Shown here piece by piece: positions 52,241 through 59,235 of a stretch of 64,000 nucleotides of DNA (position 1 is the first letter of the stretch; every line of letters starts with the position of its first letter). The notes under the pieces are model-generated. The model did not search any database. It was not told where the DNA came from and saw nothing but the letters and a program-made list of their open reading frames with translations. A program made the position numbers and the translations under genes. This stretch comes from Minisyncoccota bacterium (GTDB lineage Bacteria > Patescibacteriota > Minisyncoccia > Phycocordibacterales > GWA1-40-21), in NCBI GenBank assembly GCA_041664585.1, contig JBAYKL010000002.1:13494-77493 (forward strand), given 5' to 3'.

Positions 52241-52287
52241 TATACTTTCTATATACATTATATATATCTTTGATATAATTTTTGTAT
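52241..52287 (+). promoter_or_regulatory. conserved extended -10 promoter module with TATC-N3-GATA palindrome (copy 1)
   Basis: tatactttctatata...tatctttgaTATAATttttgtat; ATG lies 8 nt after the -10 hexamer (leaderless configuration). Confidence 0.55.
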
Positions 52288-52581
52288 ATGAAAAATATTA
52301 AAGATAATTTTTTAACTGGTCTGTTTGCCTACTTTCCTATTGCTTACATATTAAACTTAATTGCATATAAAATTACTTACTATAATCTTTTCAGAACTGG
52401 TGTTTGGTATGATTTAATAGTTGGTGTTTCTACTTTTTATATTGGAATTATTATTTCAATAATTTACATAATTTCTTTTTTAGTTCGTTGGCACGACAAA
52501 GCACTTAAAAAAATTGACAAAGTTTTGTTTTCTATTTTTATATTATCTTTTTTTATTTTAGGATTAATTTATATTTTATAA
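52288..52581 (+). CDS. small polytopic membrane protein (leaderless)
   Basis: 97 aa with 3 TM helices; sits immediately after promoter copy 1. Confidence 0.45.
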   Translation: MKNIKDNFLTGLFAYFPIAYILNLIAYKITYYNLFRTGVWYDLIVGVSTFYIGIIISIIYIISFLVRWHDKALKKIDKVLFSIFILSFFILGLIYIL

Positions 52582-52810
52582 CACTAATAGATAATTATTT
52601 TTGTTATTAAAGCAGGCTAAGTCATTCTTTACATTAAACCACTCCAAAGTTCTGAACCTGTCCACCAAGATGGAGTAGATGTATTTGATGAAAGCGACAT
52701 TCCCCTATTATGGGATTCATCAAAAGTTATAAGGATGAAAATATATTTTTTTAATAAAAAAGCGCCTACAGCCGAAACTGTAAGCGCATATTGAACAAAT
52801 GGAAGAATAA

Positions 52811-54190
52811 TCAGGCAGTCTTCTCTTTTTCCACAAGACGCATCAACGCGTCATAGTCACGGGCAAGACTATCTAGACGAATCAACCGTTTGGTCAAGTC
52901 CACGTCTATTTTATAGAACTGAACCAGACACGTATGGTGTGTCGGATTTCCACCAGACCATTCATTCTGTGGTTCACTGACGAAGCTGTAAGCATTCGCA
53001 TTCGATGGAGCAATCGCTTGCACTTCTTTTATACCGAATTTGAAAAACCCATGATACCCACCAACCGTCGTCCGAAACTGAACAGGGTCACCGATACATT
53101 CAGATTTCATAACAACGTATTCCGGTTCACAGGTATCCATACCCTCTCCGATTTTTGGATACTGAGTAAACCATTGATCGCCGAGCTTCATAAGTGCACG
53201 GAAACCAATGTCCTTCTGTTCTTTCACTGGTACGAGTAAATCTTGCCAGTATTTTCTTAGAAGGCGGTAAGCATCTGGGCCGTTACTGATACCTGATCGG
53301 ATATTACTTCCGGCCTTGATACCAACAACACGAACTCCGTTTGACCATTCATGACACGAGACATCGAGAACAAGACTTTCATTACCCTCATGGTGCAACT
53401 CGCAAAGTCGCCCCGTAGAAGTGAGGTGGCCTATTGCATACCCATCTTCGATTTGTCTAAACCCATGTTTCGGACCGAAGAAGTAGCAACAGTTTGATGC
53501 ACCACCTAATGTGACGATATATGGATCAGAATTATCAGCTCCATCACGAACATGTTGTGCCTGCCGACGGTCGAGATATTTTTTATGTACCTCTTCCTCG
53601 ATAGAATACTTATTCTCTGGTTTGAGACCAGCCTGTTCACGATGCCATAATCTCGCTCCAGTAGCATGTGCCTGTAAATACTGATCCCCTAATAGACCAA
53701 GACGAGCACCGAGAACTGGATCGGTCATCGCTTCAGACAGACGAAGCGTTTGCATGAATGGATATTCATAACGCTTGCAGTAGTCTTCAAGGTCGATAAT
53801 ACTGACCTCACCAAACTTTCCAGCTTCGAGATCCAGAAATTCTTGGCTCGTTATGCGACCACCGCGGACGCTACGATTCTTGTCTTTATATTCCCAACAG
53901 TATGCCTTTTGGATACCATCGAGAGTAGACATGGGGCCAACGCCGTGAGCGATAATCAAGAGACGTTTCCCTTGCTTACCGAATCCATAGTACTCCGCTG
54001 TGAGCGTTGTAAAATAATTCTCCCAAGGCACGTCTCCAAGATTTGCTTCAATCCGTGCTGCGACAATATCGGGCATGGTCGCCAAACGTCCATCTTTACC
54101 AGCGAATGCTGTAGCCTGTTTCCAGGCGGCAACAAAACCGTCCTGATGATAAAACGCCATTGTATTGACGTCTAATTTTTCTTTTTTCAT
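52811..54190 (-). CDS. hypothetical protein, strongly GC-elevated (likely horizontally acquired)
   Basis: 459-aa intact ORF; GGAG RBS 8 nt upstream; GC well above the neighbours; no recognisable motif. Confidence 0.5.
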   Translation of the reverse strand: MKKEKLDVNTMAFYHQDGFVAAWKQATAFAGKDGRLATMPDIVAARIEANLGDVPWENYFTTLTAEYYGFGKQGKRLLIIAHGVGPMSTLDGIQKAYCWEYKDKNRSVRGGRITSQEFLDLEAGKFGEVSIIDLEDYCKRYEYPFMQTLRLSEAMTDPVLGARLGLLGDQYLQAHATGARLWHREQAGLKPENKYSIEEEVHKKYLDRRQAQHVRDGADNSDPYIVTLGGASNCCYFFGPKHGFRQIEDGYAIGHLTSTGRLCELHHEGNESLVLDVSCHEWSNGVRVVGIKAGSNIRSGISNGPDAYRLLRKYWQDLLVPVKEQKDIGFRALMKLGDQWFTQYPKIGEGMDTCEPEYVVMKSECIGDPVQFRTTVGGYHGFFKFGIKEVQAIAPSNANAYSFVSEPQNEWSGGNPTHHTCLVQFYKIDVDLTKRLIRLDSLARDYDALMRLVEKEKTA

Positions 54191-54416
54191 TGAACCATCT
54201 CCATTTCCCGTTTAGGGATTTTAGGATTTCCTTGACCCAACACCATGTCAGATCTCTGCCAATACCTTGCCATATATAATTGACTTTTGCAAGTATAATA
54301 CATCAAGCAATAAGCAAACTTTTAAGTGGTAGAAAAACAAAACCATATGACTCTGTTTTTTGTTTCTTACGGGTGTTCAGTTTATGTTATGATATAAAAC
54401 ATAATTAATTAATCGT

Positions 54417-54887
54417 ATGTTCAGAAAAGGATCCGCAGTAATTATTATAAACAGTAATAAAGAATTTCTCCTTGTTAATCTAGAAGCATTTGAGGAGAAG
54501 AATTTTGCTATACCTGGTGGCGGGCAAGATCTTAATGAATCCTTGCTTGAATGCGCGTACAGAGAAATAAAAGAAGAACTAAACATAGGAAAAGCAGATC
54601 TAGAATATATTAATGAAAGCACCAGCCCCTTAAAATTCTATTTTAGAAGCCCTCAGGTAAGAGATGGCGTTGAATACATAGGATCAGAGAGACATTATTT
54701 TGGTTTTAAATTTATTGGGAATGATTCAAATATTATTCCAATGTCTGGCGAAGTAAGGTCATATAAGTGGGTAAAATATGAGGACTTAAAAAACTATCTA
54801 CTTTTTGAACAACAATTAGAAGATACGCAAATAAGAATAATTGAAATTTTTGGCAAAAACTTCCTAAACCTCATCCTGCATCCGTAG
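54417..54887 (+). CDS. NUDIX hydrolase
   Basis: Nudix box GGGQDLNESLLECAYREIKEELNIG. Confidence 0.7.
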   Translation: MFRKGSAVIIINSNKEFLLVNLEAFEEKNFAIPGGGQDLNESLLECAYREIKEELNIGKADLEYINESTSPLKFYFRSPQVRDGVEYIGSERHYFGFKFIGNDSNIIPMSGEVRSYKWVKYEDLKNYLLFEQQLEDTQIRIIEIFGKNFLNLILHP

Positions 54888-54892
54888 TAACG

Positions 54893-54926
54893 TATACTTT
54901 CTTTATATCTTTGATATAATTTTTAT
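54893..54926 (+). promoter_or_regulatory. conserved extended -10 promoter module with palindrome (copy 2)
   Basis: tatactttctttatatctttgaTATAATttttatat; ATG 7 nt downstream. Confidence 0.5.
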
Positions 54927-57743: not shown

Positions 57744-58029
57744 CGACCTTTCTTTTAAAGAAATTTACACGCAAACACACTAACCTAAATCTGTTATAAT
57801 TGTATCATATTATAGTAGATTTGTAAAGGGTATTTTATACAGATTATTAGCCATAAAACAACATTTTGTTTTTGTTGACTTGTGGATTTCATGGCTCTTT
57901 TGGCAAACGGCTTATTTTATCACCCAATGCAGGTGAAGCAATTTGACAAATCTAATTGTAAATGCTATACTAGTAGTAGTTACAGTCCTTTCAAAATCTA
58001 GTAAATCATTTTAAAAAGAGGAGGTTAGT

Positions 58030-58947
58030 ATGGGAGAAGACAGATTTAAGCAATCGAAGATTTTCAGATGGGTATTACTACTCATCAAATCAGCCAAATT
58101 GGTTAAGTTACTAAAGTTCGTCAAGTTGCTGAAATTTAGCAAGCTGATGCTAACTTTTGGAACAATGGCCGTTTCTGCTTTCGTTTATTCATTTTTGGCT
58201 GGTCCATGGTTTGCAATCGGTTTCGTTCTCTTGCTTTTTGTTCATGAGATGGGCCATGTAATTGCCATGAGGATAAAAGGACTGCCAACAAAAGCGCCGG
58301 TATTTATTCCTATGTTGGGAGCGGTAATTTTTGCCCCACCCTTCAATGGAAGAGAAACTGAAGCGTTCGTAGGTTTTGGAGGTCCCCTAGCTGGAACCCT
58401 AGGATCTGTTGCGGTCTTTGCGCTTTGGTTAATTTTACCAGAGCACCCACAAGTATTGTTGGCGATTAGTTTTGTTTCTTTATACTTGAATATATTTAAC
58501 CTCATCCCCATTCGTCCATTGGATGGAGGTAGAGTAACTCAGGCCGTCGGGGTCTGGCTCAAGTATTTGGGGGCAGGAATACTCATCATCATACCAATAG
58601 TCAGCAAAGACGCTGGCATGCTGTTGTTGTGGATATTGATCCTCGGAGAAATTAGGATGACCTGCAAAAGTAGGGTCCGGCTTGGCATAACCTGTGAACT
58701 TATAATGATCACCCTAATCGTATTAGGTTGTGGTGAACCTCACAAGCTGTCAAATATAATCGACATCACTGTGGCAAGCATGATAAATTTTAACTACGTC
58801 GTTGCAGAGGATGGAGATGAACCAAAAAATAACTTGCCGCAACTGAGCAAACTGGCACGTCTAAAATGGTTATCGTTGTATCTTGGGTTAGGGATATTCA
58901 TTTTATGTATGATGGCCATTGAATCACCGTTCATGATTACTAAATAA
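58030..58947 (+). CDS. site-2 protease family (M50) zinc metalloprotease
   Basis: HEMGH in a TM helix plus the NLIPIRPLDGG motif; TTGACA-17-TATACT promoter and strong GGAGG RBS. Confidence 0.75.
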   Translation: MGEDRFKQSKIFRWVLLLIKSAKLVKLLKFVKLLKFSKLMLTFGTMAVSAFVYSFLAGPWFAIGFVLLLFVHEMGHVIAMRIKGLPTKAPVFIPMLGAVIFAPPFNGRETEAFVGFGGPLAGTLGSVAVFALWLILPEHPQVLLAISFVSLYLNIFNLIPIRPLDGGRVTQAVGVWLKYLGAGILIIIPIVSKDAGMLLLWILILGEIRMTCKSRVRLGITCELIMITLIVLGCGEPHKLSNIIDITVASMINFNYVVAEDGDEPKNNLPQLSKLARLKWLSLYLGLGIFILCMMAIESPFMITK

Positions 58948-58955
58948 ACGAAACA

Positions 58956-58997
58956 ATGTCACCCAAAAGTCACTCGAGCTTTCGGGTGACTTTTTTA
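58956..58997 (+). terminator. intrinsic terminator
   Basis: gtcaccc...gggtgac plus T6. Confidence 0.6.
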
Positions 58998-59034
58998 TAA
59001 TCATCTCACGTAAATTATCTCGAATTCGGAGTCG

Positions 59035-59070
59035 TATATACTTTCTATATATCTTTGATATAATTTTTGT
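59035..59070 (+). promoter_or_regulatory. conserved extended -10 promoter module with palindrome (copy 3)
   Basis: tatatactttctatatatctttgaTATAATttttgt; ATG 7 nt downstream. Confidence 0.55.
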
Positions 59071-59235
59071 ATGAATAGAAAGAAGATAATATATTCTATT
59101 ATTGAAATATTGTTGGGAGCAGCTATGTTTGTATACGGTGCGATTGATGATAGTCCAGGAGGGCAACTACTTGGACTCGTGGCAGTAATTATTGGTATTT
59201 TTAATATCATAAAAAATAGAACAAAGATTTATTAA
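59071..59235 (+). CDS. leaderless 54-aa membrane peptide
   Basis: MNRKKIIYSIIEILLGAAMFVYG...; 2 TM; not in the ORF track. Confidence 0.4.
   Translation: MNRKKIIYSIIEILLGAAMFVYGAIDDSPGGQLLGLVAVIIGIFNIIKNRTKIY

Follow-up and report, generated by a model that had tools for sequence, protein, structure and literature searches.

Known Systems and This Locus

Genomic islands linked to tRNA genes carry direct repeats of the tRNA 3' end, and leaderless transcription from -10-proximal starts has been mapped in Mycobacterium and Streptomyces (papers cited by PMC12641261). Integrons hold arrays of cassettes, typically promoterless, with a recurring junction sequence. Putative mobile promoters are similar promoters found before non-homologous genes, with an unknown mechanism of spread (Matus-Garcia, Nijveen & van Passel 2012; PMC3575422); that survey covered -150 to -50 from the start codon at ≥80% identity over ≥50 nt, and Correia- and ERIC-type repeats are also mentioned there (PMC3575422).

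In the window, i.e., the whole 64,000-nt stretch of an uncultured Minisyncoccota bacterium analysed here, a 34-47-nt element (the module) occurs three times, always on the + strand, and upstream of every copy lies a "box" with a GGAGCAG-like end, as at the tRNA 3' end. The locus resembles the putative mobile promoters in having a near-identical promoter before non-homologous genes, also in related genomes, but what is conserved here is the core promoter (about -36 to +3), joined directly to the start codon, and its tRNA-remnant partner is not described in PMC3575422. As in tRNA-linked islands, there is an intact tRNA at one edge with same-strand partial 3'-end repeats downstream and variable gene content; unlike in those islands, no integrase could be recognised, the next gene has its predicted promoter on the repeat, and some repeats include the downstream flank of the tRNA (27 nt in the window, 78 nt in the related locus L039). 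The layout shares with leaderless starts of Mycobacterium and Streptomyces a -10 about 6-7 nt before the start codon, the lack of a Shine-Dalgarno sequence (SD), and its use by many genes, while the host belongs to the Patescibacteria (CPR) with ~35% G+C and the layout is read from sequence here and was mapped there. Short, unrelated, mostly unknown genes in the same orientation with a recurring junction recall integron cassette arrays, but IntI is absent, neither an attC-like hairpin nor R''/R' motifs occur at the junction, and each unit has its own predicted promoter. Correia- and ERIC-type repeats likewise give neighbouring genes promoter activity from a short repeat, but they are high-copy with terminal inverted repeats, whereas the module is low-copy, without inverted ends, and locked to the start codon.

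The Module and the Genes It Precedes

The features of the region, all on the + strand unless the strand is left out, are as follows:

49474-49548, +, tRNA-Asn (GTT) with CAG trailer (ARAGORN, Rfam), left anchor of the variable island
52165-52239, +, decayed tRNA-like sequence resembling tRNA-Val (TAC), weak ARAGORN call
52241-52287, +, module copy 1: units A and B, dyad, TG, -10 TATAAT, 8-nt spacer
52241-52251, +, unit A of copy 1, TATACTTTCTA
52252-52262, +, unit B of copy 1, TATACATTATA
52263-52277, +, dyad of copy 1, TATATCTTTGATATA, with TG at 52271-52272, TATAAT at 52274-52279, spacer TTTTGTAT, and ATG at 52288
52288-52581, +, 97-aa ORF, first gene behind copy 1, about three hydrophobic segments by eye
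52639-52700, +, orphan box without a module, CCACTCCAAAGTTCTGAACCTGTCCACCAAGATGGAGTAG then ATGTATTTGATGAAAGCGAC
54860-54892, +, degenerate box (...CATCCTGCATCCGTAGTAACG) overlapping the 3' end of a NUDIX gene
54893-54926, +, module copy 2: unit A', dyad, TG, -10, 6-nt spacer
54893-54903, +, unit A' of copy 2, TATACTTTCTT
54904-54918, +, dyad of copy 2, with -10 at 54915-54920, spacer TTTTAT, and ATG at 54927
54927-55779, +, three-gene operon behind copy 2
54927-55097, +, 56-aa ORF heading this operon, soluble
55166-55441, +, 91-aa membrane ORF of this operon, with SD
55471-55779, +, 102-aa ORF of this operon, with SD
55797-55826, terminator after this operon
59003-59036, +, degenerate box (...CTCGAATTCGGAGTCG[TA])
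59037-59070, +, module copy 3: unit A, dyad, TG, -10, 6-nt spacer
59037-59047, +, unit A of copy 3, TATACTTTCTA
59048-59062, +, dyad of copy 3, with -10 at 59059-59064, spacer TTTTGT, and ATG at 59071
59071-59235, +, 54-aa ORF behind copy 3, two hydrophobic segments by eye
59256-59465, +, 69-aa membrane ORF following the 54-aa ORF

The three + strand copies named in the original prediction were located where it had placed them (52241, 54893, and 59037, where TATATAC begins at 59035). All share TATAC(T/A)TT(C/A)T(A/T) units, the dyad TATATC-TTT-GATATA, TGATATAAT, 6-8 nt, and ATG; copy 1 has one 11-nt unit more than the others, its units A and B differ by 2 nt, and TATA recurs in it five times with a periodicity of 11 nt. 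The 19-mer TATCTTTGATATAATTTTT occurs exactly three times in the window, with no fourth site there even when three mismatches are allowed (0.29 expected), and the 15-mer TATACTTTCTWTATA has three exact matches. The dyad TATATCNNNGATATA was seen three times vs. 0.34 expected (≤1 mismatch) and is confined to the module copies. A chance origin of the three copies is excluded; the source contig of about 83 kb contains just these three. The palindrome does overlap the -10, as had been claimed, but it is 6+3+6 and not 4+3+4, and its right arm is the TG and TATA of the extended -10, which leaves only the left arm "free."

When the three copies are aligned, strong conservation ends at the module, and neither the flanks nor the downstream ORFs can be aligned, in agreement with the view of the element as a promoter-shaped regulatory module and not a duplicated gene. 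A fainter similarity reaches ~20-40 nt further upstream; with this part included, copies 2 and 3 have 81% identity across 57 nt (repeat family D6), so that the extent and identity used in the PMC3575422 survey are reached by box and module only in combination. A longer mobile repeat present in many copies regardless of gene context had been considered as the alternative to a regulatory element: the module is indeed the conserved half of a longer repeat, of which the other half is the tRNA-3'-end-like box, but it is low-copy and always lies exactly at a gene start.

The small ORFs represent real genes: the 56-aa ORF differs from its L046 counterpart at 18 of 171 nt but at just 3 of 57 aa, and the 54-aa ORF has 64 homologues (the 69-aa ORF has 1732). 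The 97-aa ORF was called as a gene on five contigs, and family searches with it gave no match.

Leaderless Gene Starts

A promoter scan of copy 1 returned TATACA-16 nt-TATAAT with TG (score 10/12), and the -35 position of the copies holds a weak TATAC(T/A) and nothing more. Judging from this anatomy, the copies are complete predicted housekeeping-sigma promoters of the extended -10 type (TGATATAAT). The close placement of the ATG was correctly foreseen, but the gaps from the hexamer are 8, 6, and 6 nt instead of 7-8 nt, too short for any SD, and the anatomy of the copies bears out an extended -10 with an ATG set for predicted leaderless or 2-nt-leader mRNAs. We infer the actual 5' ends of the module transcripts: transcription is expected to begin with the A of the ATG in copies 2 and 3, and 2 nt before the ATG in copy 1.

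The distance from TAnAAT to ATG shows a sharp peak at 6 nt (8/144 ORF-start ATGs vs. 2/1791 other ATGs), and many large genes of the window are preceded by TGnTAnAAT with the ATG 6-10 nt on, with sizes including 130-670 aa. The 69-aa gene (59256-59465) has its own TATAAT (59244-59249) 6 nt before its ATG, and the 69-aa gene of distant relatives has an identical -10/ATG layout. Predicted leaderless extended -10 starts are thus the default gene-start design of this Patescibacteria genome and, because this is its general rule, the geometry does not single out the module-driven ORFs. A literature search combining leaderless with Patescibacteria, Candidate Phyla Radiation, or Saccharibacteria found no paper describing this layout there.

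The Module in Relatives

Locus L046 was retrieved by protein, so that its module is unbiased by the motif; the module lies there before both orthologous units (the gene order corresponding to the copy 2 operon is 56-91-95 aa), while 4-fold sites are just 82% identical between the window and L046. Modules are also present in L015, L020, L024, and L006 (two copies); four of these copies came from an exact 21-mer scan, and their core identity is therefore partly forced. Besides the orthologues of the 56- and 54-aa genes, relatives' modules precede purF, a 354-aa protein, and a 138-aa protein and, as copy 2 heads a three-gene operon, the proposed regulon specific to small peptides is not upheld. 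The right half of the module, TGATAT(A/G)AT-TTTT(A/G)T-ATG, is kept before the 54-aa orthologues (58-82% identity) of L038, L041, L047, and L048.

Orthologous promoters differ in the number of their upstream units: before the 56-aa gene stand A' in the window, A and B in L046, and B in L015, and before the 54-aa gene A in the window, B in L020, and no unit in L046. In addition, L015 is a hybrid, in which the upstream flank of window copy 1 (52141-52240, 100 nt, ~87% identity) is joined to the ORF of copy 2 by a crossover inside the module. Close relatives differ in the gene content of this region, as expected of the accessory region that had been postulated. Other lineages have repeated intergenic families of their own.

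Linkage to tRNA-Asn

All three copies in the window are found in the 9.6 kb downstream of tRNA-Asn and share its strand. The 3' end of this tRNA reads ...CCCACGGAG, then CAG, and the sequence that follows the intact gene differs from the module. The box of copy 1 (~52204-52239, ...GGGGAGCAT) is the 3' end of the tRNA-like sequence and adjoins the module; ARAGORN called tRNA-Val(TAC) at 52165-52239 and at the L015 counterpart only at the 70% threshold, which is relaxed and gives false positives too. The orphan box is a repeat of the tRNA-Asn 3' end and its downstream flank (local alignment score 29 against 49541-49567, reached in 0/500 shuffles), and it shares 87% identity over 54 nt with the box preceding the purF module of L006. 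The box at 54860-54892 lines up by eye with CGAACTTCATCCCACATCCGGAGCAG, at the same position before the 56-aa gene in L046, where the box matches a tRNA-Asn 3' end at 14/17 positions (p=0.03). The box at 59003-59036 may be a remnant of the T-loop and 3' end of tRNA-Asn; it resembles the tRNA fragment TCGAATCCAGGTGTCG of L038, not significantly (p=0.24). In unconstrained local alignments, similarity to tRNA-Asn was not significant for the boxes of copies 2 and 3 and for most boxes.

The tRNA-3'-end-like box is itself repeated in this clade. In L038, L039, and L041, tRNA-Asn lies upstream of the 54-aa orthologue, with 0.37-9.3 kb of variable DNA between them: an unambiguous tRNA-Asn 3' fragment directly adjoins the orthologous promoter in L038, the segment in L039 is flanked by an 84-nt direct repeat that begins at the tRNA end, and box and hairpin in L041 repeat the end of its own tRNA-Asn and the terminator (p=0.008). 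Several tRNA remnants in a row suggest serial insertion. No tRNA remnant accompanies the module in L024, where it lies between yebC and ruvC, or in L020, where it follows a Na/Ca-exchanger gene, so that at least some of the spread bypassed the tRNA junction.

Origin of the Module

We lean towards the explanation that duplication in an insertion hot spot copied the promoter native to the 54-aa gene along with remnants of the tRNA, and that selection has retained it. The three copies are most likely paralogues of a single promoter, that of the conserved 54-aa membrane-protein gene, and copy 3 is probably the native one.

A repressor on the dyad is possible, and it is a tentative, rather unlikely alternative that the dyad over the extended -10 serves a dimeric repressor as operator and the module copies define a small co-regulated gene set; it would be compatible with duplication. 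All copies have a perfect 6+3+6 dyad, which is absent elsewhere in the window and in the loci of relatives examined. Left arm and spacer (TATATCTTT) are invariant in the six copies whose sequence the scan did not impose (the three window copies, one of L006, two of L046), in which the -10-to-ATG stretch (6-8 nt) takes five forms and the upstream unit several; the promoter of the L046 55-aa gene has lost the phased upstream unit and kept the dyad core, and L020 differs at just 2/18 positions outside the scanned 21-mer, against a flank identity of ~79%. However, the right arm is dictated by TG and TATA, which reduces the independent evidence to 6 nt, and a 26-nt core that differs at one position between the window and L046 is, given 18% neutral divergence, no more than marginally unexpected (about 0.04, hand arithmetic). 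The orthologous promoters of L038, L041, and L047 keep the -10 and the ATG spacer but not the dyad, the genes served are heterogeneous (purF, membrane proteins, a soluble 56-aa protein), no candidate regulator has the dyad in front, and no regulator gene was found nearby. The operator geometry of the original prediction, which is partly supported overall, thus holds for the overlap with the -10 and stays conditional beyond it, because only the left arm is free, the dyad occurs only in the copies, and no regulator was found. It is far less probable that the phased 11-12-nt TATAC(T/A)TT units are tandem half-sites of a response-regulator-type activator (OmpR/PhoB-like geometry) replacing the -35: TATA recurs each 11 nt, five times, in copy 1, A and B are just 2 nt apart, and the units take the -35 position, separated from the -10 by 16 nt, but their number varies from 0 to 2 among orthologous promoters, the L046 55-aa promoter keeps the core with none in phase, and an extended -10 needs neither -35 nor activator.

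We regard it as improbable that the module, or the GGAGCAG/TATATAC junction with the dyad core, is a site-specific recombination site of [module-gene(s)-box] cassettes served by a recombinase elsewhere. The recurrent order (copy 1-97 aa-orphan box in the window, module-56/91/95 aa-box in L046, module-354 aa-box-module-purF in L006), the three different right-hand partners of the type-1 box, the tRNA linkage, and the crossover inside the L015 module would fit, but the units behind copies 2 and 3 have no box at their end, the box has no conserved hairpin, the module folds weakly as single-stranded DNA, searches of the island against Pfam, PHROGs, NCBIfam, and PDB sequences recognised no integrase or other recombinase, and the L015 hybrid is equally explained by homologous recombination over 39 identical bases. 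A miniature mobile element (MITE- or REP-like) with an incidental promoter would account for a repeat upstream of unrelated genes, and other lineages do have repeated intergenic families, but this is barely credible for a module with no terminal inverted repeats or target-site duplication, with three copies only in about 83 kb, always in the orientation of the gene, and with its right end exactly at the ATG.

According to the co-duplication at a tRNA hot spot that we favour, the 54-aa gene would ancestrally have lain just 3' of tRNA-Asn, and repeated insertion of DNA at this hot spot (about 49.5-59.1 kb of the window) would have duplicated the junction of the tRNA 3' end and the sequence that followed. 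Each inserted block would then open with the box, a remnant of the tRNA end, joined to a promoter copy driving the first gene of its block. Selection on expression would hold the promoter half near-invariant while the tRNA remnants decay, and homologous recombination between copies, together with gain and loss of the 11-nt upstream unit, may continue to reshuffle the region.

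Anatomy of the repeated promoter module

The module, a promoter element at gene starts, was present at all three predicted sites, each of which reads, in order, TATAC(T/A)TT(C/A)T(A/T), TATATCTTTGA, TATAAT, TTTT(G/A)T(AT), and ATG.

Copies of the promoter module in the window
52241, + strand: copy 1, two upstream 11-nt units, before a 97-aa ORF
54893, + strand: copy 2, a single upstream unit, before a 56-aa ORF heading an operon
59037, + strand: copy 3, a single upstream unit, before a 54-aa ORF

The two upstream units of copy 1, A (TATACTTTCTA) and B (TATACATTATA), are 2 nt apart in sequence. 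A TG stands one base 5' of the TATAAT-like hexamer in 3/3 copies (TGATATAAT), as in extended -10 promoters of the sigma-70 type, and that of copy 1 was flagged by the promoter scan as well. Three exact sites were found in the window for the 19-mer core, with no fourth at up to 3 mismatches, and three also for the 15-mer upstream part; a repeat finder recovered the module family at 84-95% identity. The dyad TATATC-TTT-GATATA was found in module copies only. Alignment of the copies with 100-nt flanks bore out the original prediction that the downstream ORFs are unrelated, and the flanks are unrelated too. Copies 2 and 3, which are 81% identical over 57 nt in front of unrelated ORFs, fit the definition of a putative mobile promoter (80% identity or more across a minimum of 50 nt before non-paralogous genes). 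As readings of the module, a MITE was rejected, and so was a high-copy repeat, since no additional or degenerate copies turned up when the window, its extensions (20 kb), and all loci compared were scanned with mismatches allowed. A viral scan with a gapped pattern yielded chance matches only.

Leaderless geometry

The gap between the -10 hexamer and the ATG is 6, 6, and 8 nt among the module copies, with neither an SD sequence nor room for one, and we infer from this geometry that transcription from the module starts at or near the ATG. When all ORFs of 50 aa or more in the window were considered, the spacing between TAnAAT and the first ATG showed a sharp peak at 6 nt (8/144 vs 2/1791 for all other ATGs), and TGnTAnAAT with an ATG 6-10 nt further on stands before many ordinary genes (130-670 aa). 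The leaderless extended -10 is therefore the default of this genome; the predicted leaderless layout, with its putative 5' ends, holds in sequence terms and not as something special to these small ORFs. The remaining genes have an SD sequence or an AT-rich upstream region without one, and the G+C content of the window is ~35%. In front of a 69-aa gene (1732 homologues), the order of -10, 6 nt, and ATG is found in distant relatives too. The membrane protein encoded by this 69-aa gene (59256-59465, +) is very widely conserved, with many homologues that are 75-85% identical, and it is named NhaA by some sources despite its 69 aa. Nothing specific on leaderless promoters in CPR bacteria was found in the literature searched.

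Occurrence of the module in related genomes

Species-representative genomes and metagenomes were scanned for an exact 21-mer, a method to which diverged copies are invisible. Their matches were mostly single, due to chance, and in unrelated phyla, and four loci were true relatives (L-numbers denote loci from other genomes or metagenomes).

Module copies at the four related loci
L006: two copies, one before a 354-aa membrane-anchored protein and one before purF
L015: one copy, before the 56-aa orthologue
L020: one copy, before the 54-aa orthologue
L024: one copy, before a 138-aa membrane protein, between yebC and ruvC

Because identity at the 21-mer is forced by such scans, loci were also chosen through the identity of their proteins. 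One of these, L046, is closely related, its 4-fold sites being 82% identical to those of the window; its operon of 56-91-95 aa has the full A+B module in front, and its 55-aa gene has the core only (TATATCTTTGATATAATTTTTATATG), the phased upstream unit being absent. More distant 54-aa orthologues (58-82% identity; L038, L041, L047, and L048) have kept only the -10 and TTTT(A/G)T-ATG, and those of L039 and L040 are not leaderless. The compared sequences indicate that the strict module is restricted to a narrow clade and that the 54-aa gene had its right half ancestrally. The number of upstream units varies between orthologous promoters, which fits an A+B ancestor that underwent slippage or deletion of 11 nt. 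The small ORFs proved to be genuine genes, as predicted: the 56-aa ORF differs from that of L046 at 18 nt but at only 3 aa, and the 54-aa ORF has 64 homologues.

Two side observations arose from the scans. The L015 contig (DYQJ01000103.1) is labelled as a Draconibacterium orientale MAG, yet its DNA is 87% identical to the U32 peptidase gene of the window and the module is common to both; the contig probably comes from a member of the Patescibacteria and was binned wrongly. L004 and L010, from unrelated gut 'Bacilli' MAGs, are orthologous loci with 26 nt in common (TTATATATCTTTGATATAATTTTTGTA), 3 nt before the ATG of a FAD-type oxidoreductase-like ORF; this likeness could be due to chance or convergence.

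A probable insertion hot spot at tRNA-Asn

Judging from its sequence, the stretch 49474-59071 behaves as an insertion hot spot between two kept anchors, tRNA-Asn and the 54-aa gene.

Further features of the variable island
49474-49548: tRNA-Asn, 3' end CCCACGGAG-CAG
49613-51025, + strand: 470-aa protein, directly after tRNA-Asn
52639-52678: orphan box, a well-kept tRNA-end-like sequence without a module
55926-57743, - strand: ABC exporter, in place of the ECF sigma trio of relatives (L046 and L015)
58030-58947, + strand: M50-family peptidase, likewise in place of that trio

As in tRNA-linked islands, an intact tRNA-Asn lies at the edge and a repeat of its 3' end lies downstream on the same strand, with parallels in L041, L039, and L038. 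The tRNA-Asn is upstream of the 54-aa orthologue, on the same strand, at a distance of 0.37 kb (L038), 1.2 kb (L039), 9.3 kb (L041), or 9.5 kb (the window). In L038 (9400-10000), a GIY-YIG endonuclease gene is flanked by one intact tRNA-Asn and by fragments with a 31-nt T-loop insertion; the last of these, a tRNA-Asn 3' fragment, directly abuts the promoter of the 55-aa gene. In L039, an 84-nt direct repeat (8754-8837 and 10217-10300; 94% identical) begins at the last bases of tRNA-Asn and encloses 1.46 kb of DNA with the genes for a MerR-family regulator, a 96-aa protein, and the 55-aa orthologue. Downstream of the L041 tRNA-Asn (4061-7908), four same-strand intergenic repeat copies of 87-126 nt, spaced 1.1-1.4 kb apart before unrelated genes, combine a related tRNA-end-like box, a hairpin with a T run, and a TTGAC -35 promoter; they make up another promoter-repeat family, independent of the module. 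L047 has a lineage-specific repeated promoter region of its own (TTTGCT, 17-18 nt, TAAyTT, and a leader with SD) before four unrelated small genes (787, 5602, 8648, and 8971). In relatives, some module copies lie at non-tRNA loci. No recombinase domain, such as that of an integrase, was found near the tRNA or in the island by searches of Pfam, PHROGs, NCBIfam, and PDB sequences.

The prediction of an accessory region was upheld: the U32 gene and the 56-aa and 54-aa units are common to the window, L046, and L015, and the content between them differs. An ECF sigma factor, a 165-aa membrane protein (a possible anti-sigma factor), and a 130-aa secreted protein lie together between two module units, beside the 54-aa or 56-aa unit, in three relatives.

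The ECF sigma trio
L046: 2072-3568
L015: 1357-2852
L047: 6463-7915

In L015, the upstream flank of copy 1 (86.7% identity) runs into the ORF of copy 2 (86.1%), and the two matches overlap exactly where the module lies. The 470-aa protein has weak matches to TIR-like effectors (PADLOC, E=4e-5) and to two PHROGs of unknown function, with no Pfam, PDB, or phage-record match, and may be a defence gene; a phage origin was rejected, tblastn against phage records having found nothing and the PHROGs being only those two. The contigs L002 and L003 come from different sequencing runs, match the window at 100% identity, and both end at 55022, ~95 nt past module copy 2; strain variation in the variable region, or a break in the assembly there, would fit this. 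A 298-aa ORF at 48187-49083 (-) carries NusB and NUDIX domains (Pfam), an unusual fusion.

The tRNA-like box

A box of 35-40 nt ending in GGAGCAG and resembling a tRNA 3' end precedes the module in copy 1 of the window, in L015, in both copies of L006, and in L046; copies 2 and 3 have degenerate versions of it. The orphan box with its flank (52672-52698; GGAGTAGATGTATTTGATGAAAGCGAC) aligns to the tRNA-Asn end with its flank (GGAGCAGTTAGATTTGGTGAAAGCGAC) at a score of 29, reached by 0/500 shuffles, and an L041 box (box a) with its hairpin matches the L041 tRNA-Asn end and terminator (p=0.008). In unconstrained alignments to tRNA-Asn, most single boxes gave no significant match (p=0.03 for L046). 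A tRNA origin is thus well supported for the orphan box and for those of L041, L038, and L039, and we infer the same origin for the boxes at copies 2 and 3. To its right, the type-1 box has a different partner in each of three places: the module with purF (L006), the tRNA flank (the window), or a hairpin (L046). The 100 nt 5' of copy 1 are conserved in L015, and ARAGORN called a tRNA-Val(TAC) in both, at a relaxed threshold only.

Other readings of the box were rejected. RNAalifold on nine boxes gave no pairs, against a structured element, and reading frames differ between copies, against a coding remnant or small ORF. On the four L041 repeat copies, RNAalifold gave a weak 8-bp stem and the terminator hairpin only, and the module as single-stranded DNA folds weakly. 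At the gathering score, the Rfam matches were tRNAs and RNase P only, none of them in box or module; with E up to 10 allowed, there was no credible match in 52050-52850.

Regulation, mobility, and the origin of the module

The dyad was originally read as the operator of a repressor. The perfect 6+3+6 dyad is indeed invariant within the clade, and its left arm and spacer are kept whereas the upstream unit varies, as do the 6-8 nt leading up to the ATG, so that a regulator bound to it is possible. Against this, the right arm is imposed by the promoter itself, as it consists of the TG and the TATA, and the dyad is gone from the outgroup promoters of L038, L041, and L047. The dyad was not found outside module copies in ~83 kb, and neither an HTH gene nor a cognate DNA-binding protein was found among the island genes scanned. 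Promoters linked to the sigma factor of relatives were also considered and rejected: the trio is missing from the window, and the AAC...CGT pattern of an ECF-sigma promoter is not consistent in box or module; a second palindrome (TATATT-GTT-AATATA) precedes the sigma gene of L046 and that of L006 but was not preserved in L015.

Blocks of leaderless promoter module, gene(s), and tRNA-like box might instead be mobile cassettes, inserted serially at the tRNA-Asn 3' end by an unrecognised recombinase and each bringing or regenerating a leaderless promoter at GGAGCAG-TATATAC. We regard this as unlikely. If true, it would be integron-like gene capture in Patescibacteria, with expression from the attachment site itself. 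The blocks differ from an integron cassette array in that the conserved structure (attC hairpin, R''/R') is absent in nine boxes and IntI was not found.

The simplest account is co-duplication of a native promoter with tRNA-end remnants. A single native leaderless promoter beside tRNA-Asn would be the source, and it would have been co-duplicated with remnants of the tRNA end upon segment insertions, so that the first gene of each block would now be driven by a promoter copy; selection would hold the promoter half, and the tRNA remnants would decay. Promoter reuse is of a known kind (PMC3575422), and the module is an instance of it in a variable island linked to a tRNA; its leaderless layout is the one typical of this genome.

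The module is an example, from a Patescibacteria genome, of predicted leaderless architecture and of probable promoter co-duplication. Motif-based regulon inference calls for caution, since identical motifs before unrelated genes can stem from common descent and not from a regulon. The 26-nt core from dyad to ATG (TATATCTTTGATATAATTTTT(A/G)T-ATG; +2 nt in copy 1) is a candidate for use in CPR genetics as a portable promoter, either alone or together with an upstream unit, and in fragmented MAGs the boxes mark the boundaries of islands. The genomes of Patescibacteria are tiny and encode few regulators, and to our knowledge almost nothing is known about how their newly acquired genes are expressed. 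If the co-duplication account is true, a hot spot by tRNA-Asn copies its adjacent leaderless promoter, and an incoming block would be expressed at once.
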